Assembly (NCBI GenBank): GCA_034530615.2
Contig: JAVRCV020000014.1
Span: 1 to 13,071 of the forward strand
Length of the DNA: 13,071 nucleotides
DNA from: Aulosira sp. ZfuVER01
Lineage (GTDB): Bacteria > Cyanobacteriota > Cyanobacteriia > Cyanobacteriales > Nostocaceae
Direction: 5' to 3'
Of this stretch, positions 1-13,071 are shown piece by piece; the stretch's first letter is position 1; every line of letters starts with the position of its first letter. Both the position numbers and the translations under genes were made by a program. Below the pieces are notes generated by a model. The model was not told the DNA's origin. It worked only from the letters and a program-made list of their open reading frames with translations, and did no database searches.

Positions 1-94
1 TCAACTCAGCAGTCTGCCTGGGGAATTTGGACAACTGGTCAACTTGCAAACCCTCGACCTCAGGAGTAATCAACTCAGCAGTCTGCCTGGGGAA
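1..94 (+). repeat. LRR-coding direct repeat (69-nt period)
   Basis: tcaactcagcagtctgcctggggaa occurs identically at 1-25 and 70-94. Confidence 0.9.
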
Positions 95-2791
95 ATCAGG
101 AAATTAGCAAATCTGACAGAGCTAGATCTTCGGAGAAATCCACTGCCCATTCCACCTGAGATTTTAGGGAGCAAGAATTTATCAAGAGATCCAGGTGATG
201 TCAATGAAATTCTCGATTTCTATTTTCGAGTACAAGATCCCAAAGAAACTGAACCCCTCTACGAAGCTAAATTTTTAATTGTTGGCGAAGGGGGAGCAGG
301 TAAAACTTCTTTAGCTAATAAAATTCAAAATGAAAGTTACGAACTTCAGCCGGATGAAAAATCAACGGAAGGCATTGAGGTGATTCGCTGGCACTTCACC
401 CAAGCAAATGGCAAAGATTTTCGCGTTAACATCTGGGACTTTGGCGGTCAAGAAATTTACCACCAAACCCATCAGTTTTTCCTCACTGAACGTTCTCTTT
501 ATGCCTTAGTCGCTGATACTCGCAAAGAAAACACAGATTTTTACTGGTGGTTGAAGGTCGTTGAACTCTTAAGTGACAATAGTCCAGTTCTGATTATTAA
601 AAACGAAAAACAAGGCCGTCAATGCGAAGTTAATTATCACCAATTGCGGGGTGAATTCACCAATTTAAAAGAAGCCTTACCAACCAACCTAGCTACTAAT
701 CGTGGTTTACCAGAAATTAAACAAGCGATTCAAGACTACATCAGCAGACTTCCCCACGTTGGTACACTTTTACCAAAACTCTGGGTAAGAGTCCGTTCTG
801 CTTTAGAAAACTATTCCCGCAACTACATTAACTTTTACGAATACGAAAACCTTTGCCGAGTTAATAATTTAACTGACCGTCAAGATATGCTGCGGCTGAG
901 TCGCTATCTGCACGACCTCGGCGTTTGTCTACATTTTCAAGATGATTCTACACTGAAACACTATGTCATCCTCAAACCAGAATGGGGAACTACTGCTGTC
1001 TACAAAGTGTTAGACAATAAAAACGTCAAGGAAAATTTAGGCTGTTTTACCAAGGATAATCTTAAAGATATTTGGAAAAATTGCGAATATGCTGATATGC
1101 GAGATGAACTGCTGCAACTGATGATGCGGTTTAAACTTTGCTACCCAATTCCTAATAGTCCTGGTAACTATATTGCACCGCAACTACTCGATATTGAGCA
1201 ACCTGCCTATAACTGGGACGAAACTAATAACCTAATTTTACGCTACGAATACATGTTCATGCCCAAGGGTATTATCACTCGCTTCATTGTAGAAACACAC
1301 CCTTGGATTGAACAACAAAAACTCGTTTGGCGAAGCGGTGTTGTTCTCGACAAAGACCAAACTCGTGTGGAAGTTATTGAAAATTATAATCTTAAAGAAA
1401 TTAAAATCCGTGTAGAAGGAAACCGCAAGAAAGAATTGCTAGCAGTCGTCACTCACGAACTAGATAAAATCCATAAATCTTTTGAGCGATTGCAGTATGA
1501 CACTCTTGTTCCTTGCAACTGCAAAGAATGTGAAGGAAGCCGAGAACCTTATTCCTACGAATTAGATAAATTATATAAGCGTTTAAAAGCTGGTCGGTAT
1601 CAGATTGAGTGTGAGAACAGCTATCAAATGGTAGATGTTCGCAGGTTAATTGATGATGTTAATCTACAATCCCAATTTGAACCACTACAACAAGAATTGT
1701 CTCAAGCCAGAGATAAATCATTAAAAAAACAACCGATGATAAATTACCATGATTTCCAAATATTAGTAACAGCAGACCGCAAAATTCGCGCTTCCTCAGA
1801 ACAAGGCGATGAATGGGGCGAATTGCGCTTAGAAATGAACAGAATTAAGCTGTCATTAAAACTAATTGATTCTCGCCAAACAGATACCGATTTGCTAAAA
1901 GCCCTAGGTGGCGAACTCTACCAAGCGCTTTTCCCTATAGATATTCGCGGTCAATTACGGGCTACAATTGCAGGCGCACAAGCGAATGATTACGAGGTAC
2001 GCTTGCGCCTAGTATTTGATTCCCCCGAACTAGCCGCCCTACCTTGGGAATTTCTCTATGATGAGGCTACTAAAACTTTCCTTGCAAACAACACTCAAAC
2101 CGTACTCTCGCGTTATGTTGACGTTCCCCTCCAAAAGCGCGACCTGAAAGCCGCAAGCCTACCGCTGAAAGTTTTGCTAGTCATCTCCAGCCCAACTAAC
2201 TTACCTCAATTAGATGTTGCTGAGGAAGAACGCCTCATCCGTGACGCACTGAAAAAACACATAGATGCAGGCCAAATAGAGTTAGATGTGCTACCAGAAG
2301 CCACCATTCGCAACATTAACCAAAAGCTACGCGAAAAGCCATACAATGTTTTCCACTTCATCGGTCACGGTAAATTTGATAACAACAAAGGCTGTATTGC
2401 CCTAGTAGATACCGATGGCAAATACAAACTCTTGGATGATGAGGGTTTTGCCAATTTCTTTTTAGGCAACCGCAGCTTAGGGTTAGCTGTGCTAAATTCC
2501 TGTCAAGGTGCGACGGTATCATCTAACCAAGTATTTGCAGGTATAGCACCTAACCTAGTGCGCCGAGGAATTCCCGCTGTAGTCGCCATGCAATATGAAA
2601 TCCTCGACACCACCGCCAAGCTGTTTGCTGATGAATTTTACCGCACTCTCGCCCTAGGCTGGCCTGTAGATGCAGCTATGCAAACTACCCGCAACGCCAT
2701 TTCGATGGAAGTGGGCTTAGATAAACCTGACTTTGCGACACCAGTGCTGTATATGCGCGCTAAGGATGGAATAATTTTGAGTGGGTTGTGA
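2..2791 (+). CDS. Roco-family protein: LRR - Roc GTPase - COR - CHAT (caspase-like) protease; 5' end lies outside the window
   Basis: Frame is open from base 2 (QLSSLPGEFGQLVNLQTLDLRSNQLSSLPGEI..., 23-aa LRRs). P-loop GEGGAGKTS, switch I STEGI, G3 WDFGGQE, COR motifs (YLHDLGVCLHF, LKPEW), CxCxxC cluster, C-terminal CHAT dyad motifs FHFIGHG and LNSCQG. Confidence 0.93.
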   Translation, partial: QLSSLPGEFGQLVNLQTLDLRSNQLSSLPGEIRKLANLTELDLRRNPLPIPPEILGSKNLSRDPGDVNEILDFYFRVQDPKETEPLYEAKFLIVGEGGAGKTSLANKIQNESYELQPDEKSTEGIEVIRWHFTQANGKDFRVNIWDFGGQEIYHQTHQFFLTERSLYALVADTRKENTDFYWWLKVVELLSDNSPVLIIKNEKQGRQCEVNYHQLRGEFTNLKEALPTNLATNRGLPEIKQAIQDYISRLPHVGTLLPKLWVRVRSALENYSRNYINFYEYENLCRVNNLTDRQDMLRLSRYLHDLGVCLHFQDDSTLKHYVILKPEWGTTAVYKVLDNKNVKENLGCFTKDNLKDIWKNCEYADMRDELLQLMMRFKLCYPIPNSPGNYIAPQLLDIEQPAYNWDETNNLILRYEYMFMPKGIITRFIVETHPWIEQQKLVWRSGVVLDKDQTRVEVIENYNLKEIKIRVEGNRKKELLAVVTHELDKIHKSFERLQYDTLVPCNCKECEGSREPYSYELDKLYKRLKAGRYQIECENSYQMVDVRRLIDDVNLQSQFEPLQQELSQARDKSLKKQPMINYHDFQILVTADRKIRASSEQGDEWGELRLEMNRIKLSLKLIDSRQTDTDLLKALGGELYQALFPIDIRGQLRATIAGAQANDYEVRLRLVFDSPELAALPWEFLYDEATKTFLANNTQTVLSRYVDVPLQKRDLKAASLPLKVLLVISSPTNLPQLDVAEEERLIRDALKKHIDAGQIELDVLPEATIRNINQKLREKPYNVFHFIGHGKFDNNKGCIALVDTDGKYKLLDDEGFANFFLGNRSLGLAVLNSCQGATVSSNQVFAGIAPNLVRRGIPAVVAMQYEILDTTAKLFADEFYRTLALGWPVDAAMQTTRNAISMEVGLDKPDFATPVLYMRAKDGIILSGL

Positions 2792-3509: not shown

Positions 3510-4874
3510 TTAAACAGGCATTGCTTGACGCACTTCGATTGGTTCGCCAGTCAAGCTAAAAGCGCGAACTTCGGTGATTTTGACTTTCACCAATTGCCCT
3601 TTAAGTTCTTTAATATCACCAGTAAAGAAAGTCAGACGATTACCCCCTGTGCGTCCCATTACCTGAGTTGGATCTTTGGGGTTTTGGTCTTCTACTAATA
3701 CTTCCTCAATGCGTCCAAAATAACGTTGCGATCGCTCGGCGGCTTTAATACCTACTAAATGATTTAATCTTTGTAGGCGATCGCTTTTTACTTCTTCACT
3801 CAATTGATTTTCCCACAAAGCAGCGGGTGTTCCCGGACGTGGAGAATAAGCGGCGGTATTCAACAGATCAAAGCCAATATCTTCTACTAATTTCAAGGTG
3901 TTTTCAAACTGTGCTTCCGTTTCTCCAGGAAAACCGACAATCGCATCTCCACTAATCGATGCATCTGGCATATAACGGCGGATTGTATCAATTATCCGAC
4001 GGTATTTTTCATGTGTATAACCCCGTGACATTGCCTTCAACAATTCGTTATCCCCAGATTGGAAAGGGATGTGGAAGTGTTCGCAAACCTTGGGTAATTC
4101 TGCACAAGCTTTAATTAAACGCTCAGTAAAATAACGGGGATGACTAGTAGCAAAACGTAGTCTTTCAATACCTGGCACATCATGCACGTAATACAGCAAA
4201 TCTGTGAATGTATGCAGATGGCGCCCTTCGGCTGTTACTCCTGGTAAGTCACGCCCATAAGCGTCAATATTTTGACCGAGTAGGGTAATTTCTTTGTAAC
4301 CTTGCCTGCCTAATTCTTCCATTTCAGCACGAATCGCTTCTGGCGTGCGGGATTGTTCCACACCACGCACATTCGGAACTACGCAATAAGTGCAGCGTTC
4401 GTTGCAGCCATAAATCACATTCACCCAAGCTGTAACTTTGCTATCCCGCCGGGGTTGAGTGATATCTTCCATAATGTGAACTGGCTCGGTAGCCACAACT
4501 TGATTACCTTCAAATACCGACTCCAGCAAATCTTTGAGACGGTTGGCGTGTTGCGGCCCCATCACCAAATCTAATTCGGGGACGCGGCGCAAAAGGCTCT
4601 CACCTTCTTGTTGGGCAACGCATCCAGCAACAATTAATGTTAAATCGGGCTGCTCGTGTTTGCGCTTCGCCTGTCTACCCAGGTAAGAATATACTTTTTG
4701 CTCGGCATTATCCCGAATCGTGCAGGTATTGTAGAGAATTACATCTGCATGATTGGCATCTTCCGAAAATTCAAAGCCCATGTCTTCTAAAATGCCAGCC
4801 ATGCGCTCTGAGTCGGCTTTATTCATTTGGCAACCAAAAGTAGTGATGTGATAGCGGCGTTTAGAAGTGGTCAT
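3510..4874 (-). CDS. miaB: tRNA-2-methylthio-N6-dimethylallyladenosine synthase MiaB
   Basis: N-terminal TFGCQMN...NTC...GCVAQ (UPF0004 cysteines), radical-[39 protein letters not shown]-terminal TRAM domain. Confidence 0.98.
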
Positions 4875-4913: not shown

Positions 4914-4925
4914 ATCTATTCACTC
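4914..4925 (-). other. Putative element end / recombination junction (left-donor GAGT - core GAAT - right-target AGAT)
   Basis: Minus strand reads GAGT-GAAT-AGAT. GAGUGAAU is in the 5' arm of the second RNA loop (6481..6474). AUCUAUUC, its complement on the right side, is in the 3' arm of the first loop (6532..6525). The site is ~85 bp after the recombinase stop. Confidence 0.75.
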
Positions 4926-4946
4926 TAATAAGTGTAGCGAGATTTT

Positions 4947-4980
4947 AAAAGCCCCCCAACCTGTAAAAATTATTGGGGGG
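4947..4980 (-). terminator. Intrinsic terminator after the IS110 recombinase
   Basis: ccccccaa (4952-4959) / ttgggggg (4973-4980) stem followed by CUUUU on the minus strand. Confidence 0.6.
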
Positions 4981-5006
4981 AAATTTTAATAGTTAATGGT
5001 CATTGG

Positions 5007-6374
5007 TCATTTGGCGATCGCGTTCACCAGGTGACTAAACAGCAGGTTAGCAACTTTAGCCATTAATTTACCCTGCAAGTGTTTACCGTTAAGTAATTGT
5101 CTGCCAGATTCATCAGTAAAGTCTTTTAACTTGCTACGGTACTCAAGCATCGTAGCGGCGGTGTCATTATCAGGCAATCTTTCGGTTTCTACTTGGCACA
5201 GAACGTACTGCCAAAACGACATCCTGCACAACGCCGAACCGCTTTTTACTTCAATTAACTCATCACCGGACTGCTCAAGTACTGTACCCATACCTAACCG
5301 CATTTTGAAAGTATCGCGTGAGCGATTGCGTTTAACTCGCTTTACATCCCCAGGCGAACGCTTAACCACAGTTTGACCATCCTGCCGATGCTTCTCTACC
5401 CGTTTAACTTCCCTGACTTCATATTCAATTAGTGGTCTTCCATTACTCAAGAATGCTTCAAACGGGTAAATTCGAGTTAGCAGCCGGGCACGTACACGCA
5501 AGCCAAAACCAAATTTGTCAAAAATCTGGTTGTATTGCTTGAAGCACTCATCATCAAGTAGAGTTTTAATCTCAGCTTCAATCCGCTGCTCGCACAATTC
5601 AATGTCACACAACCAATCACCGTGTAGCCTCAAAATAGGGTCAATGGTAATACCGTAATGGTTAGCAGCTGACGATTCATATTTTGCTGTTAGTGCTTTC
5701 CACGCTTGAGACGATACCTCAAACTGCCTTTCGGCTAACCAACCCCATAATGGAGGTACATTTCCCAATTTGGTGCTTTTAGATTTCACATGGGCAACTT
5801 CTGGAAACTGCCAAGCTAAAACTTGTCTAGCATAGTTAACTATTGGGCTTTGTACCCGGTTCAAATGTTCAAGCTGCTGGCACAGTTCCCTTAGCCGATC
5901 GATTGGTTCGCTTCGGTGCATCAGGAAATATCTAGTGTTTAATTCACCATCTTCGGTGTGGTGTTCTACATCAAGCGGGTAAGCGGCCATAGCCAAAGCA
6001 TCAGCAGCATCAGATTTATTTGGCAGATTTTTACCGCCACGATAGCGGCGTAACTCTATATGCCCAACCCACAAAATCTTAATACCTAAACTGTCAATTA
6101 TTTTTGCCCACAGGCGGGAATAATGATTCCCTGTAGGCTCCATAATTGCAACATTAGCCTGACTTTCCTGAATAAATTTAGCAAAATCAAAAGCTGATTT
6201 CTGCTTCTTTTTAACATCAGGATTGCTATAGAAAACCGGATAATGACTTGATGCTTTATTCCTCGTTTTTTCCCAGTAGGATTTTAACCCACCCTTGGGA
6301 TAAGATGAGAGAACATGAACTGTGACTGATGCTTTAGAAACATCAATACCCAAAGTTTTTAATTCAATTGTCAT
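5007..6374 (-). CDS. IS110-family DEDD recombinase/transposase (bridge recombinase), ~455 aa
   Basis: RuvC-like DEDD motifs LGIDVSK, MEPTG, KSDAADA; coiled-coil middle region; C-terminal LGMGTVLEQSG (catalytic Ser motif) followed by GSALCR. ATG at 6374 is preferred over TTG at 6392. Confidence 0.9.
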   Translation of the reverse strand: MTIELKTLGIDVSKASVTVHVLSSYPKGGLKSYWEKTRNKASSHYPVFYSNPDVKKKQKSAFDFAKFIQESQANVAIMEPTGNHYSRLWAKIIDSLGIKILWVGHIELRRYRGGKNLPNKSDAADALAMAAYPLDVEHHTEDGELNTRYFLMHRSEPIDRLRELCQQLEHLNRVQSPIVNYARQVLAWQFPEVAHVKSKSTKLGNVPPLWGWLAERQFEVSSQAWKALTAKYESSAANHYGITIDPILRLHGDWLCDIELCEQRIEAEIKTLLDDECFKQYNQIFDKFGFGLRVRARLLTRIYPFEAFLSNGRPLIEYEVREVKRVEKHRQDGQTVVKRSPGDVKRVKRNRSRDTFKMRLGMGTVLEQSGDELIEVKSGSALCRMSFWQYVLCQVETERLPDNDTAATMLEYRSKLKDFTDESGRQLLNGKHLQGKLMAKVANLLFSHLVNAIAK

Positions 6375-6412
6375 GGTTCTGTTAGTAAACAAAGGTACAT
6401 TTAGTTGTAGTT

Positions 6413-6618
6413 AAAAACCCAGTTTCAAAGCGCACGAATCACCCTAACGCCCCACATCCTAAGCAGGGGCGCGATTCACTCCTAAACGAACTGGGAAGCC
6501 ATACAACTCCGGGAAGCTGCGCTTGAATAGATGAACGCCTCACGCTAGAGAGCGCAATTCTATTACAACGCCGCATTCCCGATGTGTGATGGTGCGAACT
6601 GCTTTGGACACAATCCGC
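6413..6618 (-). ncRNA. Putative bridge RNA (target-binding stem-loop 6592..6499; donor-binding stem-loop 6495..6418)
   Basis: Directly upstream of the IS110 gene. Two long stem-loops with internal loops; G-U pairs favour the minus strand. Four CGUU-preceded segments end in GAAU or AUUC, and two of them match the element junction. Ends in GGG-UUUUU. Confidence 0.8.
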
Positions 6619-6679
6619 GACTCTGGCATCTGCCAGAGTTTCGGCTACTGTGTCAGGTAGCCTCATCAGGCGGTTATTG
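6607..6679 (-). ncRNA. Type I hammerhead ribozyme; predicted cleavage between 6619 and 6618 (GUC|)
   Basis: CCGC-CUGAUGA-GGCUAC[CUGACACA]GUAGCC-GAAA-CUCUGGC[AGAU]GCCAGAG-UC|GCGG. All core nucleotides are present and stems I/II/III pair perfectly. Loop II GACACA can pair with downstream UGUGUC (6612..6607). Confidence 0.95.
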
Positions 6680-6871
6680 TTTACTTAATTTCCTAACTTG
6701 TTGAAGTAACTCGATATTTTTTTCAATTCCAAATCTGACCGGAGACAACTCACCATCAGGTAGTCTGTCTATTAACTCTTGTAAGTTTAGACAGGTTGAT
6801 GTTAGGTGATAAGTCAAAATATCAACTGTCCTTTCTAGTGCTTGAATTCTTTGTGCTACGTCTGAATCCAT
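6674..6871 (-). CDS. Small hypothetical coiled-coil protein (65 aa)
   Basis: ATG preceded by AAGGA, amphipathic helical sequence; the UAA stop abuts hammerhead stem I. Confidence 0.7.
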   Translation of the reverse strand: MDSDVAQRIQALERTVDILTYHLTSTCLNLQELIDRLPDGELSPVRFGIEKNIELLQQVRKLSKQ

Positions 6872-6973
6872 TATTTATCCTTATAAACTGAACTTGGTAA
6901 TTGAATCATTCCCGAACCTATCCCACTAATACCAAAAATGTGATAATCTGCTTTTCAAATCACAAAGGGTGTA

Positions 6974-7258
6974 TCACAGTATGGCTGGGCGGTTTGAAGG
7001 ATTAACAGACTTAAAATGGAGGCTGTTTGAAGATATATTTCCAGAAGATTTATTTTTGAGGTAATCTTTGATAGTTTGCTCGATTTGTTCAGGACTTAAT
7101 TTATCGCACTGGGCATTGGCTTCTTTACTGATTCTGGAAACCCAGTAATTCAGTGGTTGACCTGTTAACTCACACAGATATCTAACTGCAATGCCTAGTG
7201 AAAGACTATTGGTTATGTAGTCTTCTTTGCCCATCAAGAATTTGGATTTGTTTGTCAT
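6974..7258 (-). CDS. Hypothetical protein (94 aa), paralogous to the C-terminal half of 7255..7740
   Basis: ATGA overlap with the upstream gene; clear similarity to that gene's C-terminus. Confidence 0.8.
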   Translation of the reverse strand: MTNKSKFLMGKEDYITNSLSLGIAVRYLCELTGQPLNYWVSRISKEANAQCDKLSPEQIEQTIKDYLKNKSSGNISSNSLHFKSVNPSNRPAIL

Positions 7259-7740
7259 AACTTCTCTTTATGCCTCTCAACAACCATGAACGATGCATCG
7301 GATTCTTTGGCTTTGTTTGCAAAATAAGCACTGATTTGCTGTTCAATTTCTTCATTAGTTAAAGTTTCAAACTGTGCAGTCCCCTGTTTCCAAATTTGTT
7401 GTATCCAGAAATCAGGAGATTGACCTGTTAAGCTGGCAAGAAATTTAACTGCCAGTCCGCTAACCATGCTGTTAAGCACAAAGTCTCCCTTGTCCATCAA
7501 AAATTTAGATTTATCTGTGGACTCTTCGGGGATGGAAGGTGATGGTGCTTCTTCTAGGGCGGCGATAATGGCTGAGGCGTTTTCACCATAAAAAACTTGG
7601 GTGTCGCCATCACACCAGGTAACAATGATAATTCCTTCATTTTTGTCATCAATGACTTGCCGGATTTGAGCCAGATTTACCCAACCGGCGCTGGGGGTTT
7701 TGCAAGTAAACACGCTTTTGACTGATATTATGGTGTGCAT
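7255..7740 (-). CDS. Hypothetical two-domain protein (161 aa)
   Basis: ATG start, Pro/Ser/Glu linker (EEAPSPSIPEES), C-terminal domain duplicated in the next gene. Confidence 0.8.
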   Translation of the reverse strand: MHTIISVKSVFTCKTPSAGWVNLAQIRQVIDDKNEGIIIVTWCDGDTQVFYGENASAIIAALEEAPSPSIPEESTDKSKFLMDKGDFVLNSMVSGLAVKFLASLTGQSPDFWIQQIWKQGTAQFETLTNEEIEQQISAYFANKAKESDASFMVVERHKEKL

Positions 7741-7826
7741 GGTTCAGGCTTATCCAATGGCTAAGTTGGGTTGAGCTTTTGCGATCGCGTCCAATCTCCC
7801 AAAAAGCGCGATCGCAAAAAAATTGA

Positions 7827-8216
7827 CTAAAACCCGTCAGGGATACCGCTATCTGTGGCAGTATCCCCAGCTTCAAAAGGGATATCGTCTATGCTGGGTT
7901 CCTGCCCGGTTGAGTTATCTTGTGATGGTTGGAGTTTTTCTAGTTCAGCCTTGGTTTGTTCGAGTTTTGAAATCTCTCGCTTGAGGTTGTACACCTGGTC
8001 GTCTAGTTGGTTTCTTTTGGCTTCCAAGTCCAAAATCTCTTTTTGAAACTGCTTACCAATCTGGGAACGGATGTTACGCTCAACCAATTCCATTAGATGC
8101 AAAATTGCCTCATCCTCATCATCTCCTTGGGCAACTTCACCAAACAACTCTAGGTGCTTATTTTCGTAGTTCCCCAGGTTTAAAACCCGTTTGTAACTGA
8201 TGCTTTTAAGTTGCAT
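7827..8216 (-). CDS. Hypothetical coiled-coil protein with acidic DDIPF-containing tail (129 aa)
   Basis: N-terminal alpha/beta segment (LNLGNYE), heptad-rich middle, acidic tail. Confidence 0.8.
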   Translation of the reverse strand: MQLKSISYKRVLNLGNYENKHLELFGEVAQGDDEDEAILHLMELVERNIRSQIGKQFQKEILDLEAKRNQLDDQVYNLKREISKLEQTKAELEKLQPSQDNSTGQEPSIDDIPFEAGDTATDSGIPDGF

Positions 8217-8292
8217 AATTTACCCTGTACACGTTTCAAGTCTTTGAATCAAACGCGATCGCATTTTTGAAGTGCGATCGCAAAAAATTGAG

Positions 8293-8481
8293 TTATCCTT
8301 GAACCTCAACCGGTTGCTTGTCGAAAGCTACACAAAACAAGACACCAGGATTTAGCCTGCGTAAAATGCTCATATAAGATTCAGCGTCAGTTCGAGTGCG
8401 AAAACGATTAACGCAGACATTCTTAACTGTTGTTTCACAGCGAAAAACAGCCCACGGTTTAAGGTCAGCGCGATAAGTCAT
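8293..8481 (-). CDS. Small hypothetical protein (62 aa)
   Basis: MTY...PW...RFR.R.DA......LRRL.P...F...FD pattern, which I recall from small Nostocales hypothetical proteins; first clear gene of the leftward operon. Confidence 0.75.
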   Translation of the reverse strand: MTYRADLKPWAVFRCETTVKNVCVNRFRTRTDAESYMSILRRLNPGVLFCVAFDKQPVEVQG

Positions 8482-8615
8482 AATTTAATTTCCAATTTTT
8501 CAAAAAAGGCCAGCGTCAAGCTACACCAAGCTGACGCTGGTGTTCCATACGTTTGACTGACAGAAGAATGACTCCAGGTTGGAGGAAAGCGCCAGCTGTA
8601 ACACTGGCGAATCAT
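8478..8615 (-). CDS. Possible 45-aa leader ORF (MIRQCYSWRFPP...FFEKLEIKL), not in the ORF track
   Basis: Open frame whose TGA overlaps the ATG of 8293..8481 (ATGA); it spans a terminator-like hairpin. Confidence 0.3.
   Translation of the reverse strand: MIRQCYSWRFPPTWSHSSVSQTYGTPASAWCSLTLAFFEKLEIKL
8502..8540 (-). terminator. Terminator/attenuator in the leader of the leftward operon
   Basis: CCAGCGUCA-(13 nt)-UGACGCUGG-CC-UUUUUU on the minus strand, ~20 nt before the 62-aa gene. Confidence 0.6.
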
Positions 8616-8731
8616 GGTTTAATTTTGAATTCACAACTGAGTAGAGATTAGCGTCTAAATTTATACCTCCATAGAGACAGCATGACTGTGCAGCGCCGGG
8701 TGAAGGGAAAGCGCTATGTGATTGTTATGTG

Positions 8732-8800
8732 ACTGCGAACATTACATAGTTAACTGCGAACATTGCACAGTTAACTCCGATGATTACGCAGTTAACTCCG
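8732..8800. repeat. 21-bp tandem repeat (3 units plus a partial)
   Basis: actgcgaacattacatagtta / actgcgaacattgcacagtta / actccgatgattacgcagtta / actccg. Confidence 0.85.
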
Positions 8801-8938
8801 CGCCAATGACCAATAACTATTGACCATTGACTCTGGACTTTTGACTTAGGGTGTTTCCGCGCCGGGCACTTTGGCAAGTGGTGCGGGTGCTTGCTCCAGA
8901 ACAACACGCAAGGTTTAGGCGTGGGGGAGCTTGTTGTT

Positions 8939-9021
8939 TTGTTCTACCAAACAAGTTAATATTATATTGTTCTACGAAACCAGTCAACATTTCGTAGAAC
9001 AATATATTTTTTTTGTTCTAC
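8939..9021. promoter_or_regulatory. Operator array in the divergent promoter region (TTGTTCTAC x4, including a 15-bp perfect inverted repeat)
   Basis: TTGTTCTAC at 8939, 8967 and 9013, inverted at 8994-9002. tattgttctacgaaa (8965-8979) / tttcgtagaacaata (8990-9004). Immediately upstream of the RHH gene. Confidence 0.7.
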
Positions 9022-9035
9022 AATTGGAAAAAGTA

Positions 9036-9446
9036 ATGATAAAAGAGAATGCCGAGACCCAAGATATTAGCGGAAGATGCGATAAACGCATCAATCAGGA
9101 TCAGCCGAGCGGATTGGGAGAAGTTAGAGACGATAGCTCAATCAATAGGCTTAAAGAGCAAAGCGGATCTGCTGCGAGCGATTGCACAGGGGGAGATACG
9201 TATCGGGCAAATGTCGAATACGGAGACAGCCCTGCTGGGAAACTCCTAAGTCGTCTAGAGTTGTTGGAGAAAGCTTTTTATGGTTACGTGCATGGTCATC
9301 AAGAGCGACTCAAGACACGCTACAAAGAGAGTACAGAACTAGAATCTGCTTTCACAGAAGAATTACAAGTGATTAAGCAAGGGCTTCGTGATTTAGCGCA
9401 ACAAGTCGAAGACGACTCAGAATTAAACAACAATGAAAAACCATAA
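9036..9446 (+). CDS. Overlapping frame with C-terminal coiled-coil; expressed from ATG 9036 or by -1 frameshift from the RHH gene
   Basis: The part after 9240 (KLLSRLELLEKAFYGYV...LRDLAQQVE) looks like a real helical protein, while the part overlapping the RHH gene does not. G_GGA_AAC heptamer at 9237-9243. Confidence 0.6.
   Translation: MIKENAETQDISGRCDKRINQDQPSGLGEVRDDSSINRLKEQSGSAASDCTGGDTYRANVEYGDSPAGKLLSRLELLEKAFYGYVHGHQERLKTRYKESTELESAFTEELQVIKQGLRDLAQQVEDDSELNNNEKP
9049..9249 (+). CDS. Ribbon-helix-helix (CopG/Arc-like) DNA-binding protein
   Basis: MPRPK... then beta-strand ASIRIS, helix RADWEKLETIAQSIG, turn, helix SKADLLRAIAQG. Confidence 0.8.
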   Translation: MPRPKILAEDAINASIRISRADWEKLETIAQSIGLKSKADLLRAIAQGEIRIGQMSNTETALLGNS

Positions 9447-9479
9447 GCCGTCCTGCCTGCATGGGTGAGGGCGGTTTTT
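9447..9479 (+). terminator. Intrinsic terminator
   Basis: gccgtcct...agggcggt stem followed by a T-run, directly after the 9446 stop. Confidence 0.6.
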
Positions 9480-9537
9480 AATGGGCATCGCTCCTCACCT
9501 CAAAGTGCGATCGCCAATGACCAATGACAAATGACAA

Positions 9538-9804
9538 ATGACTAACCAAACCCAAGCCCAAATCGAAGCAGCCATTGAAACACTCAAGGATGCTAAAAAC
9601 GCCGCCATCACATCGCTATACGAATTTGTGGATTTTGTACGCACCATTGATTCTGAATTAACTCCCAGTGAAGCATTGATCATCACTGGATACGTATTGC
9701 ATGAATTACCAGAATTGTTTAAGAAAAATCCCGGTCTGGTAAATCAAATCCAAGAGATAGCAACAAAATTAAAACTCGAACGCTCAGATATTAGCAACAG
9801 CTAA
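9538..9804 (+). CDS. Hypothetical helical protein (88 aa)
   Basis: Co-oriented in the rightward cluster, protein-like composition; the start is embedded in atgacaa heptamer repeats. Confidence 0.75.
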   Translation: MTNQTQAQIEAAIETLKDAKNAAITSLYEFVDFVRTIDSELTPSEALIITGYVLHELPELFKKNPGLVNQIQEIATKLKLERSDISNS

Positions 9805-9893
9805 CAACCTGATTTTTAATACCTAAAAAATTGAAATGCCTCCTAGAGTTAGCAGCTACTAAGAGGCGATTGGATAAAATCTCTACTCTCATT

Positions 9894-10793
9894 ATGACAT
9901 TAAAAGCATCACAAACTCTGTCACTAAGGACAGAAAAAGAACTGGCATTTTTCCTAGAACAGAACACAATTCCATTGACTCAAGCACTATGGGAATGGAT
10001 AGCATTACAAGGAAAAATCGGTACACAAATAGAAATTGACCTCACGGACTTTGAGCAATTTGTCACTAAACACCGAGGTACAAAATTTGCTCGGTGGTGG
10101 TTGTTAAAACGCTTCAAATGGCTTATCCAACATAGAGTAATCCAAGTAATCAAAGAATTCAGTAGTACAGCTTACAGAATACTTTTAAGACCCTTTGATT
10201 GGTTAAAACCACGTAAAAAAAATTCGCAAAATCACTTGCAAAATCTCAACTCGACTTGCGATTTAACCACCTCAAACGAGCAATCAGCAAGGGACGGGGA
10301 GAACAACAACAACACTTATATTCCTAAGATATCGACTAGCGAACGCCAAGAGTTAAACAAGATACTCGAAATCATCAAGCTTTGCGAACAATATGGTTAT
10401 CAACCATCTGCACCAATTTTTGATTTTTCTATTGACGAACTCAAAGCAAGTTTAGAGCAATGGTCAAGTCAACAGTATGAGGAATTAGAAAGACGCTATG
10501 ACATCCTCAAACTGTGTGCTGAATATGAGATTTACTACCATCCCAACAAAGCAGGCACTCAAGAACTGTTTAATTACCCCATTGAAGAAATCGAATTAGC
10601 TCTAAAACACTTCATCAAAAGCGGTGGATTTGAAAAACGTGCCAACGGTAAACCAATTATTTCTAATCCCCAAGGTTGGTTAATTCGTTGCTTACAGCAA
10701 TCTTGGTGGGAACAAGTGACATTTGGCATTGAGCAATTTCTCAATGTCATGAATGCCTTTTTACCTAAGAACATCCCTAGGGATTATTCCTAA
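9894..10793 (+). CDS. Putative replication-initiator/replisome-organiser-like protein (~299 aa)
   Basis: N-terminal winged-helix-like region, low-complexity linker, internal ~45-aa duplication, C-terminal ISNPQGWLIRCL motif. ATG 9894 is preferred over TTG 9831. The function is inference. Confidence 0.6.
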   Translation: MTLKASQTLSLRTEKELAFFLEQNTIPLTQALWEWIALQGKIGTQIEIDLTDFEQFVTKHRGTKFARWWLLKRFKWLIQHRVIQVIKEFSSTAYRILLRPFDWLKPRKKNSQNHLQNLNSTCDLTTSNEQSARDGENNNNTYIPKISTSERQELNKILEIIKLCEQYGYQPSAPIFDFSIDELKASLEQWSSQQYEELERRYDILKLCAEYEIYYHPNKAGTQELFNYPIEEIELALKHFIKSGGFEKRANGKPIISNPQGWLIRCLQQSWWEQVTFGIEQFLNVMNAFLPKNIPRDYS

Positions 10794-10853
10794 AAGTTAG
10801 TTGAAAAAAATAAGCCGCAAAGCGCGGCTCCATCTACCTATCAAAGGAAAATT

Positions 10854-11054
10854 ATGCCAGATTCATCTTTACTATTCGACCGTCAGCAAATCGAGATTTT
10901 CAAAAACTGGATACGCCGCCGCTTCATAGCAGAAGCCGATTTTCAACAGATGCCAGTAGAATTTGCCCTGGCGTGGTCAGCTGCTCTCAAAGAATTGTCC
11001 CAAACGGTTGCTCATGAGATAGTTCCGTTTCACCGCCGCGGGGGTGAGTCATGA
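10854..11054 (+). CDS. Hypothetical protein (66 aa)
   Basis: AAGGA SD before the ATG; ATGA overlap with the next gene. Confidence 0.7.
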   Translation: MPDSSLLFDRQQIEIFKNWIRRRFIAEADFQQMPVEFALAWSAALKELSQTVAHEIVPFHRRGGES

Positions 11055-11710
11055 GTAAACAGCTAACTTTATTCGACTTGAGTGCGATTACTCCGCCAAC
11101 TACCCAGGTATATGACCCCGCTTGGGATGATGATACAGTTGATTCTCAAATTGCCAGTCAGGGAATTGATAATTCCTCCTCTACTCCTGAGTCACAGTCA
11201 CCACTTGCCCAGGAGTCTTTTTCTCATAACCGTTGGAATCCTGCTGATTTCGGGGAAGTGCCACACAAGGCAGACGGCGATCATCTGACAATTTTCTACG
11301 ATGACACCAACGAACCACCAGATCCAGATGATTATCAAAATCTCACCGATTATGAGCAAGCCTGGCGCGAGTGGCGATTACGTGTTGGGGCGCAAGTAGA
11401 GAGTGATACCCAACTAGACACCGTAGAATTGCTTGTTGGGGCGCAAGTAAATCGTGATACTAAAAAAGTTGCGCCCCAACACGATAAGCAAACTCATTGG
11501 GTAGAAAAGTACTGGGTGCAGCGGGAAGGAAACAAGTACTGGTACTATCGCTACTGCTGGATGACCGGGCGCAAAAAACACCGCCGCTACATTGGCTCAG
11601 TTGAAAGTGCGATCGCAAAAAATCGGAAATTGGAAGTTGAGAGTGCGATCGCGGATGGAGAATCCCCGGCTGAGATTGAAAATCTAATTCGCTCCTGGCG
11701 CAAGTCCTAA
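11051..11710 (+). CDS. Hypothetical mobile-element protein with acidic N-terminus and a basic/aromatic C-terminal beta domain (likely nucleic-acid binding)
   Basis: QLTLFD, EPPDPDDY...YEQAWREW and YWYYRYCW...KKHRRYIG motifs; translationally coupled to the previous gene. Confidence 0.8.
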   Translation: MSKQLTLFDLSAITPPTTQVYDPAWDDDTVDSQIASQGIDNSSSTPESQSPLAQESFSHNRWNPADFGEVPHKADGDHLTIFYDDTNEPPDPDDYQNLTDYEQAWREWRLRVGAQVESDTQLDTVELLVGAQVNRDTKKVAPQHDKQTHWVEKYWVQREGNKYWYYRYCWMTGRKKHRRYIGSVESAIAKNRKLEVESAIADGESPAEIENLIRSWRKS

Positions 11711-12016
11711 AGCCTGTGGATTCTCCTGTAACAACTTCTGCAACTTTCGCAACTCATCCCAGGTGCGAGAGTTAATATCAGGCTCCTTTGACTGTGGAGT
11801 TGCCCGATAATTTTCCTTTCGCCAGGTGATGTATCGGTCGATGGCATCTAATACTATCGCTGCATTGTCTGTTACAAGGCAATTACCCGCATCTAATTGC
11901 CGGGCATATTCTGTAATTGGAAGTTCCAAAACTTCTGGAACGCGAATAACGGTTGTTTTCCCATGCTTCCAACTGTTACCCCAAGTCGTGGTTCTGCGTC
12001 CGCCTTTACTACTCAT
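11684..12016 (-). CDS. Small putative DNA-binding protein (RHH-like; ~110 aa)
   Basis: MSSKGGRRTTTWGNSWKHGKTTVIRVPEVLELPITEYARQLD shows a strand-helix pattern. ATG 12016 is preferred over the ORF-track start. Confidence 0.65.
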   Translation of the reverse strand: MSSKGGRRTTTWGNSWKHGKTTVIRVPEVLELPITEYARQLDAGNCLVTDNAAIVLDAIDRYITWRKENYRATPQSKEPDINSRTWDELRKLQKLLQENPQALGLAPGAN

Positions 12017-12028
12017 GATTGCATCTCT

Positions 12029-12049
12029 ATTGCCTGTTACAAGGCAATT
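12029..12049. promoter_or_regulatory. Palindromic operator-like site, second copy at 11864-11884
   Basis: attgcct-gttaca-aggcaat-t; 20/21 identical to attgtctgttacaaggcaatt at 11864. Confidence 0.55.
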
Positions 12050-12123
12050 TATCATGAAAAATGCGATCGCACTTCTTGGGAATTGGGATGCTTCCAAAGT
12101 GCGATCGCGTAGCAAAAAGCAAA

Positions 12124-12297
12124 TTATGGGTCAATCCTAAGCGATGGCGGGAGTAAATCAGCCTCATATTCATCCCAAGCTTTGTCAGCGATACCTTCTA
12201 GAGATTTGGCTAGCACCCGGGGGTCGTCCATATCCCCATTCAGGATTTGTCCAATTAAATAACCAAGGGACAGTACCAAGTCAGTTTTGTTGATCAT
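12124..12297 (-). CDS. Small acidic hypothetical protein (57 aa; MINKTDLVLSLGYLIGQILNGD...LPPSLRIDP), not in the ORF track
   Basis: Its ATG overlaps the recombinase TGA (ATGA) and it fills the gap to the next gene. Confidence 0.7.
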   Translation of the reverse strand: MINKTDLVLSLGYLIGQILNGDMDDPRVLAKSLEGIADKAWDEYEADLLPPSLRIDP

Positions 12298-12875
12298 AAA
12301 GTGGCGATCGCCCCCTTAATCGCGTCTGGGTCAATGTCGATGTAACGCTCAAGTGCCTTAAAATCCCGATGCCCGGTGATTTTCTTAATTTTGTAGGGGT
12401 CAATGCCGTTGCGGTGCAGTTTTGTTATAAAACTCCGGCGGGTAGTGTGAGTGCTAATTCCCTTACTCGCAAAACTAGCTTTTTCACAAGCTCGTTTGAG
12501 AATGTCATAAGCATTGCGCCAAGTCATCGGCTTAGTTCCATCCCGTCCGGGAAACAGCCAAATGTTATCAGTCTCAGGTTTGTAAGATGCCAACGATTCA
12601 GCCAAAACTTGATGTACAGGCACTTGCCGCGTTTCACGACTGCCATCAGGCCGCTTTTTGCGAGTTGCAGCTCGAAAAGTAATGTATTCCCGTGGCTTGC
12701 CATCATCATCATAAACATCAGCAACTTTTAGCTGAATCAATGCCCCCCACCTTTCCCCCGTGTACCAGCCTAAATCCAAAAGTAATTTGTATTTTTGGGT
12801 TTGAATTTGACGACGTAATTTAGAATATTCCGTGTCAGTGATACAGGCGGCCTGTCCGTGACCGTCAACCTTCAT
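12294..12875 (-). CDS. Small tyrosine recombinase (catalytic domain only; resolvase-like)
   Basis: Catalytic residues TGERWG (R), RKK (K), HTTRR (HxxR), GHRD (H), ERYID (Y). 193 aa, no N-terminal core-binding domain. Confidence 0.93.
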   Translation of the reverse strand: MKVDGHGQAACITDTEYSKLRRQIQTQKYKLLLDLGWYTGERWGALIQLKVADVYDDDGKPREYITFRAATRKKRPDGSRETRQVPVHQVLAESLASYKPETDNIWLFPGRDGTKPMTWRNAYDILKRACEKASFASKGISTHTTRRSFITKLHRNGIDPYKIKKITGHRDFKALERYIDIDPDAIKGAIATL

Positions 12876-12895
12876 TCATTGACCATCCTTTTTCA

Positions 12896-12936
12896 ATGTT
12901 CCGCTTTTACCTCTGTTACAGGTAAAAGTGGAATAT
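12896..12936. promoter_or_regulatory. Inverted repeat with 7-bp spacer upstream of the tyrosine recombinase (candidate res/core site or operator)
   Basis: atgttccgcttttacct-ctgttac-aggtaaaagtggaatat, arms 15/17 complementary; related arms recur at 13009-13035. Confidence 0.6.
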
Positions 12937-13071
12937 CCAAGCTTTCAGCTATTACTAAAAGTAAGCACTATCCTAGTGCTGGCAAGCCTTTCACGTAATC
13001 AGTGAATCTTCTGCTTTTACATAAAACTGGAATATTTACTTTATTTTTGAAGCCGCATAAAACGGATTTAT

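Follow-up and report, generated by a model that had tools for sequence, protein, structure and literature searches.

A probable bridge RNA preceded by a predicted hammerhead ribozyme in the right-end module of a large cyanobacterial element

Bridge RNAs are a recently discovered means of programming DNA recombination. A stretch of 13,071 nucleotides (nt) from the cyanobacterium Aulosira sp. ZfuVER01 (Nostocaceae), called the window here and comprising a whole contig (C14, JAVRCV020000014.1, forward strand), carries between positions 6618 and 6412 of its minus strand what is very probably the bridge RNA of a divergent cyanobacterial recombinase of the IS110 type, with DEDD and serine catalytic residues. 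The RNA and the recombinase gene form a module that occupies the right end of a conserved element of 14-16 kb, and a predicted hammerhead ribozyme lies immediately 5' of the RNA. The reading adopted here, to which a probability of about 0.78 is assigned, joins these features: a bridge RNA, belonging to the right-end module of the large element, would be released by the hammerhead from the transcript of an upstream operon. Coordinates of all features are collected in Table 1.

The four guide segments that the earlier note on this DNA had described are found on re-reading the minus strand exactly where it had placed them, with CGTT-GTAATA-GAAT (6570..6557) and CGTT-CATCT-ATTC (6537..6525) in loop 1 and CGTT-TAGGAGT-GAAT (6488..6474) and CGTT-AGGGTG-ATTC (6449..6436) in loop 2. 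The closing helices (CGGGAA/UUCCCG, CCAU/AUGG and CCCAGUU/AACUGGG) and the trailing UUUUU are all present, and the 5' limit that it had proposed, 6618, is the base directly after the predicted hammerhead cleavage site. Neither the ribozyme nor the large size of the element features in the note. The region is unusually stable, with a minimum free energy of -98.3 kcal/mol over a 236-nt stretch (z = -5.0; 0/200 shuffles as stable). Its conservation was followed in 80 loci encoding relatives of the recombinase, 73 of which have at least 300 nt before the start codon and give, together with the window, 74 upstream regions. The bridge RNA could be aligned in 65 loci, and pairs were counted with the guides held unpaired. 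The two-loop fold is kept throughout this alignment: 82.7% of the cells are paired, 23 pairs are altered on both sides, and none of 500 shuffles reaches the observed covariation measures. The inner stem of loop 1 switches from G-C to A-U in 28 sequences. Stems conserved with compensatory changes upstream of homologous recombinase genes, which had been proposed as a check, are thus what the alignment contains. An RNAalifold consensus that pairs GAAU with AUUC inside loop 2 is taken as an artefact of the self-complementarity of the core. An open reading frame (ORF) of 75 amino acids (aa) at 6439-6666 of the minus strand falls wholly within the hammerhead and bridge RNA region and is most likely spurious.

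The strongest support for the assignment comes from the junctions between element and chromosome. The guides of loop 1 vary among elements, while those of loop 2, read from the alignment columns, are constant within lineages. Taken as its complement, the 3' guide of loop 1 reads GAA and then the next five flanking bases. In the window copy the right end is TTAGAGTGAA and the right flank reads GAA/TAGAT (a slash marks the junction). The same layout, a hairpin followed by a conserved terminus, recurs in 53 of the 65 loci, and the conserved right end 3' of the terminator-like hairpin exists in two versions, ..TTAGAGTGAA or ..TTACCCTGAA. When the 53 rows with a recognisable right end (12 being dropped) are collapsed to 51 distinct guide/flank pairs, the right target guide matches the right flank at each of positions +1 to +5 in 39-45 pairs, and at +6 in 11. 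The total of 220/306 matches compares with 84 +/- 8 after permutation, a level that none of 2000 permutations reaches, so that the guide-junction co-variation anticipated for a bridge RNA is present for the right target guide. Ten pairs match poorly; in four of them (L024, L026, L027 and L051) the right end is followed by TCCCC, the left end of a further copy.

The RNA ends 37 nt before the ATG of the 455-aa recombinase ORF, directly upstream of the gene, and its stem and U-tract precede the start codon. This position would also suit a cis-acting 5' leader that serves only the translation or stability of the recombinase mRNA, with the protein alone picking the target. Such a leader, however, needs neither a loop 1 that varies in step with the flanking DNA nor a loop 2 that matches the element's ends, and the fold predicted for the protein is that of RNA-guided recombinases solved with bridge RNAs. 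A leader of this kind is therefore highly improbable, and the region is better read as a bridge RNA.

The left end of the element is defined by the genome of N. linckia NIES-25. There one copy has, after its right end, GAATCCCCG, which is complementary to the 3' donor guide of that lineage; further occurrences of this sequence are located 15.9 kb upstream and at one other place in the genome. The tandem pair in this genome (L051/L052), two full copies 15.9 kb apart, holds a right end-GAA-left end junction. The true left junctions in N. linckia read tATGATGAA/TCCCC and TAGGATGAA/TCCCC, the respective left guides being AATGATGAA and AAGGATGAA, and these two junctions match the left guides at 8/9 positions. 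The left junction of the window copy lies on another contig of the assembly (C6:59-46, minus strand), where TTTAATAGAA/TCCCCACAAG begins the element with TCCCC; the left end is GAA/TCCCCAC, and contig C6 terminates 51 nt into the element. In further complete genomes, 13-mers were derived from the guides (five left-guide bases, GAA and TCCCC), the test being whether they occur at all and at the expected place. They are present on the correct strand upstream in 4/4 genomes tried, 13.9-15.9 kb away. Element lengths from four complete genomes are about 15.2, 13.9, 14.9 and 15.9 kb.

Two other candidates for the left end were considered. One adjoins the hammerhead, where the left target guide has no match and the upstream sequence is coding and common to the copies; it was dropped because the N. 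linckia tandem pair gave the true left end. The other, GAAACACCCT at 8857..8848, departs at one base from the sequence complementary to the right donor guide. Its adjoining bases are unlike the left target guide, and it is also excluded by the real left end, which starts with TCCCC.

Unoccupied target sites complete the picture. A search with the left flank finds matches in 7/41 genomes, the Aulosira genome itself included. In five relatives (L096-L100) a single GAA joins the left flank to the right one, TAATAGAATAGATG (TAATA-GAA-TAGATG), while a sixth has 36-nt partial matches only. The empty site of L096, ..CTTTAATAGAATAGATGTAAAGC.., matches both target guides, position +6 included. There is one copy of GAA at each junction and a single copy in each of the five empty sites, and the recognition site can be written as N5-GAA-N5. 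On the donor side, the guides match the right end (..TTAGAGT-GAA) and the left end (GAA-TCCCC..), each with one bulged or mismatched guide base. Left guides read like the top strand and right guides are complementary to it, with the core inside all four. In IS621, likewise, the bottom strand is paired by the left guides and the top strand by the right ones, all four include the core, and donor pairing is discontiguous (PMC11208160). The proposal of a bridge RNA whose four guides lie in a target loop and a donor loop is therefore upheld, since the guides match real junctions in the geometry published for IS621.

Although the family as a whole appears mobile, the window copy itself might be a fixed, immobile remnant. 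It is single in its genome, an orthologous insertion occupies the same site in Nostoc sp. CHAB 5844 (L002), and its flank base at +6 differs from the right target guide. Yet its gene, its hammerhead core, its four guides and both of its ends are intact, the site is empty in five relatives, and the right target guide of L002 differs from that of the window copy and fits its own flank variant, GAATAGAAA. Fixation is accordingly considered unlikely, though not negligible, and an intact member of a family that appears active is preferred. The window and L002 elements are related, with recombinases that are 89% identical and the same site upstream of miaB; the site predictions from their right target guides, GAATAGATG and GAATAGAAA, respectively, each fit a natural site variant of the empty relatives.

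Other members of the family occur beside each other. Many elements of the TTACCCTGAA lineage have a left target guide, (C/T/A)AGAGTGAA, that equals the right end and core of the other lineage (L043 with L111; L025, L026, L042, L053, L059, L064, L066, L075, L077 and L079). In Aliinostoc (L043) the left junction abuts an other-lineage right end. The elements with such guides appear to be directed to the right junctions of resident other-lineage elements, building tandem arrays. In L024, L026 and L027, as in L051/L052, the right end leads directly into the GAA-TCCCC of another copy. About 400 nt past its first right end, L027 has another, which matches the right target guide of L027 and may mark a miniature derivative.

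Two motifs of the RNA call for a different description from the one first given. The earlier note had taken CGUU for a free leader recognised by each recombinase subunit. In 60-65 of the 65 sequences, however, C-G-U is base-paired with the GCGC that trails the opposite guide (alignment pairs 52-55/102-105 and 68-71/86-89). CGUU is therefore the end of a GCGU/GCGC helix that flanks both sides of both loops, in four copies, and only its last U is unpaired. More distant members of the family have CUU or YUU in its place, so the motif is not universal. The four-base core GAAU, in turn, is partly right but has to be shortened: GAA is the shared core of three nt, and the fourth base, U, is an extra position. 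Among 63 distinct RNAs, GAA is present in the left target guide of 59. The base after it is U in 49, which equals the first base (T) of the element's left end; where it is not U, the next base equals the first right-flank base in 7 of 14. From these frequencies GAAU is resolved into the shared core and one position that looks handshake-like or extended. In the right target guide, A follows UUC in 61/63, and T is the final base of the right end ahead of the core in 63/63, a pair that is compatible with a handshake but invariant. The base after the right donor guide is complementary (Watson-Crick) to left target position -1 in 20/63 against 14.6 expected, a weak association among related sequences (79/5000 permutations at least as high). 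GAA would thus be the shared recognition core, although the length of the crossover region is not readable from the sequence. In the most distant members, L123 (G059) and L122 (G078), the loops suggest a different core behind the same hammerhead, for example CUAG-like repeats in L123.

The recombinase is a divergent IS110-like protein. It scores 459.5 bits with NCBIfam NF051857 (transpos_IS110_2, 'IS110 family transposase'; cut-off 180) and 45.8 bits with the general model 'IS110 family RNA-guided transposase' (cut-off 140). A word-based search yields 329 homologues, nearly all in Nostocales, and NF051857 genes above the cut-off occur in 18/201 sampled genomes of the phylum and in 0/14 control genomes. 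A model of the protein predicted by AlphaFold (AF2) from 94 homologues has a mean confidence (predicted local distance difference test, pLDDT) of 91.4. With this model, the ten best Foldseek matches are IS621 and ISCro4 recombinase chains (E = 2e-9 to 1e-8; TM-score 0.61-0.64, normalised to target length; identity 13-16%). The structures matched are bridge-RNA synaptic complexes, and the matches extend over the full length; the next ones are Nop5, TasR and RuvC. D11, E79, D122, D125 and S369-G370 are invariant in the 94 homologues, the corresponding residues described for the IS621 recombinase being D11, E60, D102, D105, S241 and a conserved G242 (PMC11208158). The equivalence of S369-G370 with S241-G242 would follow from motif and position only, not from a residue-level superposition. 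Together, the fold match of the predicted model and the invariant DEDD residues place the protein among recombinases with a RuvC-like DEDD domain, a coiled coil and a Tnp domain.

The predicted hammerhead ends precisely where the bridge RNA begins. Cleavage is predicted between C6619 and G6618, and G6618 is the first base of the bridge RNA. A hammerhead is found in 69 of the 74 upstream regions, in 38 as a short form and in 31 with two extra hairpins after A9. In an alignment of 37 short forms, the core positions (C3 U4 G5 A6 N7 G8 A9, G12 A13 A14, A15.1-U16.1 and H17) are invariant or at least 90% conserved. Overall pairing is 94.3%; in stem III, 6/8 pairs are compensated, and in stem II one pair changes from C-G to G-C in 11 sequences. 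The loop of stem II, GACACA, can pair with the complementary UGUGUC that follows stem I on its 3' side (UUGUGUC within the bridge RNA's 5' hairpin). Pairing in this pseudoknot reaches 95.9%; compensation is seen at one pair in 6/37 sequences and also in distant loci. Before the predicted cleavage, bases of the 5' hairpin therefore also supply the 3' strand of hammerhead stem I (GCGG) and the partner of the pseudoknot, which suggests that the segment refolds after cleavage. A covariance model of the short form has a single match in the Aulosira genome, at this hammerhead (94.6 bits). In 4/5 distant cyanobacterial genomes tried there are 7 hammerheads, each 193-240 nt upstream of an NF051857 gene, whose stems II and III are entirely different yet complementary. 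The TAA stop codon (6676-6674) of the preceding 65-aa ORF sits inside hammerhead stem I, and TAA abuts CCGCC in most loci.

A processing role of the hammerhead for the bridge RNA is considered likely, if with somewhat less confidence than the bridge RNA itself. Alternatively, the bridge RNA may be real while the hammerhead does not make its 5' end, being either a relic or a device of the upstream operon mRNA (3' end formation or stability, or uncoupling of translation), in which case the bridge RNA would have its own start. Some copies are indeed altered in the core or at the cleavage site: position 4 is C (CCGAUGA) in L007, L025 and L069, and bases of the cleavage site and stem I are changed in L049 and L063. 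In addition, 31/69 hammerheads have two large hairpins inserted between A9 and G10.1 (e.g. L018:2150-2256), one of them built on the palindrome GCGATCGC, known as HIP1; the remaining ribozyme is unchanged. Against this alternative, the cleavage site coincides in every lineage with the base that opens the conserved 5' hairpin, the bridge RNA itself contains the partner of the pseudoknot, and the spacing between hammerhead and gene is kept in distant members. Furthermore, the ribozyme model matches its own genome at the bridge RNA locus only, and the minus strand from 7625 to 6679, at the ribozyme, has no promoter-like site. A hammerhead unconnected with the 5' end is consequently held to be rather improbable, and release of the bridge RNA by the hammerhead remains the preferred reading.

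The altered and interrupted hammerheads also weigh against the overall reading, and so do several other results. The 5' strand of stem I forms only 4-6 bp and varies on that side, with no two-sided changes. The sole Rfam listing in the window is RAGATH-1-hammerhead (RF03152) at 6699..6614, with 27 bits against a gathering score of 56.3 (E = 0.55). In isolation, the window hammerhead has a different minimum-energy fold, which is attributed to the pseudoknot complementarity. Promoter-like sites are not enriched (11 vs 8.3 +/- 3.1 in shuffles). The donor guides pair with the element ends only if one bulged or mismatched base is allowed. For the protein, Pfam PF01548 (DEDD_Tnp_IS110) gives 25.1 bits, below its cut-off of 29, PF02371 (Transposase_20) is unmatched, and a sequence search of solved structures returns insignificant matches only (IS621, E = 0.42). 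Finally, the recombinase gene is single-copy in a genome of 8.0 Mb, and the left arm of this copy is unassembled.

The element to which the module belongs is large and conserved in its arrangement, with the RNA-recombinase module at its right end. Since the module is at that end of an element of 14-16 kb, the bridge RNA is far from the left end: at least 8.1 kb for the window copy, and 13-15 kb in complete elements. For the operon genes of 62, 129, 161 and 94 aa, synteny is seen in 45, 38, 39 and 14 of the 80 loci, respectively. In alignments with two complete elements, the end of the window falls 7.2-7.7 kb from their left end, so that a left arm of about 7 kb is absent from the assembly; a search of the Aulosira genome with an 820-aa protein from the left arm of the N. 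carneum element found nothing. Searches of Pfam and PHROGs name almost none of the cargo genes, recognising only the 193-aa tyrosine recombinase, and no relative was found among viral contigs. The element may be plasmid-like or virus-like. The palindromes at 8930-9040 overlap the only promoter-like hexamers upstream of the operon and look like the operator of a switch of the element. The tyrosine recombinase is conserved in the elements (also L119, 7878-8459) although the bridge recombinase appears to integrate them, and it may resolve multimers. A large LRR-Roc-COR-CHAT protein (44-2791, plus strand) is encoded in the window outside the element, on the far side of miaB and a YcxB-like gene.

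Table 1. Positions of the bridge RNA, hammerhead, recombinase gene and other element features in the window
Feature	Position	Strand	Description
Bridge RNA (probable)	6412..6618	minus	about 200 nt; in order, 5' hairpin, target-binding loop, donor-binding loop, U-tract
5' hairpin of bridge RNA	6594..6618	minus	GCGGAUUGU..GCAGUUCGC; helix 95.9% paired
Target-binding stem-loop (loop 1)	6499..6592	minus	outer stem with compensatory changes in 9/13 pairs
Left target guide	6565-6558	minus	UAAUA-GAA
Right target guide	6532-6525	minus	AUCUA-UUC
Donor-binding stem-loop (loop 2)	6418..6495	minus	guides match element ends
Left donor guide	6484-6475	minus	UAGGAGUGAA
Right donor guide	6445-6436	minus	AGGGUGAUUC
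Type I hammerhead ribozyme (predicted)	6619..6676	minus	CCGC-CUGAUGA-stem II-GAAA-stem III-GUC/GCGG (slash, predicted cleavage)
Hammerhead stem I, 5' strand (AA-CCGC)	6675-6670	minus	core CUGAUGA at 6669-6663; stem II GGCUAC/GUAGCC
Bridge recombinase gene	5007-6374	minus	intact, 455 aa; divergent IS110-like protein
Right end of element	4919..5006	minus	terminator-like hairpin (4980-4952, then CUUUU), terminal TTAGAGT and core GAA (4928-4919)
Right half of target (TAGAT)	4914..4918	minus	upstream of miaB-like gene (3510-4874)
Part of element in window	4919..13071	minus	8.15 kb, from tyrosine-recombinase gene through operator-like region and operon to right end
Operon of small genes	8481-6674	minus	stop codon of its last ORF within hammerhead stem I
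Last small ORF of operon	6674..6871	minus	65 aa
Operator-like region	~8930-9040		GTAGAACAA..TTGTTCTAC and further TAGAACAA palindrome copies between divergent genes
Small tyrosine-recombinase gene	12294-12875	minus	193 aa, catalytic domain only (Phage_integrase, 62 bits)

From the arrangement of these parts, the following course of events can be proposed. The bridge RNA is probably co-transcribed with the upstream operon and would be made within the operon transcript. The hammerhead would cut itself after C6619 and so release the bridge RNA, whose freed 5' segment would refold from hammerhead stem I and the pseudoknot into the 5' hairpin. Bound by the recombinase, the RNA would direct recombination of the joined ends of a circular form of the element with an N5-GAA-N5 site, and one GAA would be left at each junction. 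The supply of bridge RNA would then be tied to the regulated operon of the element itself, and not to a promoter rebuilt at the circle junction. A more far-reaching version, which is tentative and somewhat less probable than its negation, is that the bridge recombinase is the regulated integrase/excisionase of a plasmid-like or virus-like element whose guide depends on the operon, with release by the hammerhead obligatory and the refolding acting as a one-way switch. If this were true, ribozyme cleavage would be an obligatory step that times RNA-guided recombination, excision from the chromosome included. In IS621, the bridge RNA is described as weakly expressed from integrated copies (PMC13626964), which limits excision.

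Compared with known hammerheads, the ribozyme resembles the bacterial and phage forms (Rfam RF00163, RF03152) in its catalytic core, its three helices, its H17 site and a loop-mediated tertiary contact. It differs from them in scoring below every gathering score and in that the 5' hairpin of a guide RNA supplies both the 3' strand of its stem I and the partner of its pseudoknot; the two extra hairpins after A9 in 31/69 copies, one containing GCGATCGC, are a further difference. The main text of a recent preprint (bioRxiv 10.64898/2026.10.21.760802) lists an unannotated hammerhead cluster without its genomic context, and this cluster could be the same family as the one described here. In setting the end of a guide with a self-cleaving ribozyme, here a predicted one, and in allowing any promoter, the arrangement is like the engineered guides in which a hepatitis delta virus (HDV) ribozyme is placed behind bridge RNAs (PMC11208160). 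Unlike these, the hammerhead is natural, is placed 5' of the guide and has been conserved throughout a gene family. A full-text search of the literature found no paper joining a natural hammerhead, or another natural self-cleaving ribozyme, with a bridge RNA. The fusion of a predicted natural ribozyme to a guide RNA suggests a way to obtain exact 5' ends from any transcript.

The cargo-bearing 'expanded' IS110 elements reported in a 2026 preprint (bioRxiv 10.64898/2026.08.14.744561) are similar in having an IS110-type recombinase and a guide RNA, in being far larger than 1.5 kb and in forming tandem arrangements; size alone is therefore not new. Those elements are described as growing by progressive addition of cargo, mostly plasmid-derived DNA, whereas the present ones, as a whole family, share a syntenic backbone and keep the module at the right end. 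The abstract and section 5 of that preprint make no mention of a hammerhead. What differs here is the combination of a conserved backbone, a right-end module and a ribozyme-linked guide. One 2026 survey picked its loci by the PF01548 and PF02371 architecture, and a clade whose recombinase is without this architecture is likely to be missed by domain-based mining.

Relative to IS621, the system shares the strand geometry, the presence of the core in all guides and the discontiguous donor pairing (PMC11208160, PMC11208158), as well as the overall fold of the recombinase, the DEDD motif and, judging by motif and position, probably the invariant Ser-Gly (PMC11208158), so that the bridge-RNA mechanism would extend to a divergent recombinase clade. 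It also has clear differences. The shared core is GAA (3 nt) instead of CT, and the recombinase, at 455 aa, has beta-hairpin insertions and is about 14% identical. The RNA, which lacks a promoter rebuilt at the junction, is found behind an operon and a hammerhead and not in the left end. With the N5-GAA-N5 rule, both ends and an authentic empty target known for this copy, the system should lend itself to direct testing and reprogramming. Finally, IS621 is an insertion sequence of about 1.3-1.5 kb, while the element here has 14-16 kb and a conserved gene set; the bridge recombinase would serve not a minimal insertion sequence but a whole family of conserved elements, as their dedicated integration module.

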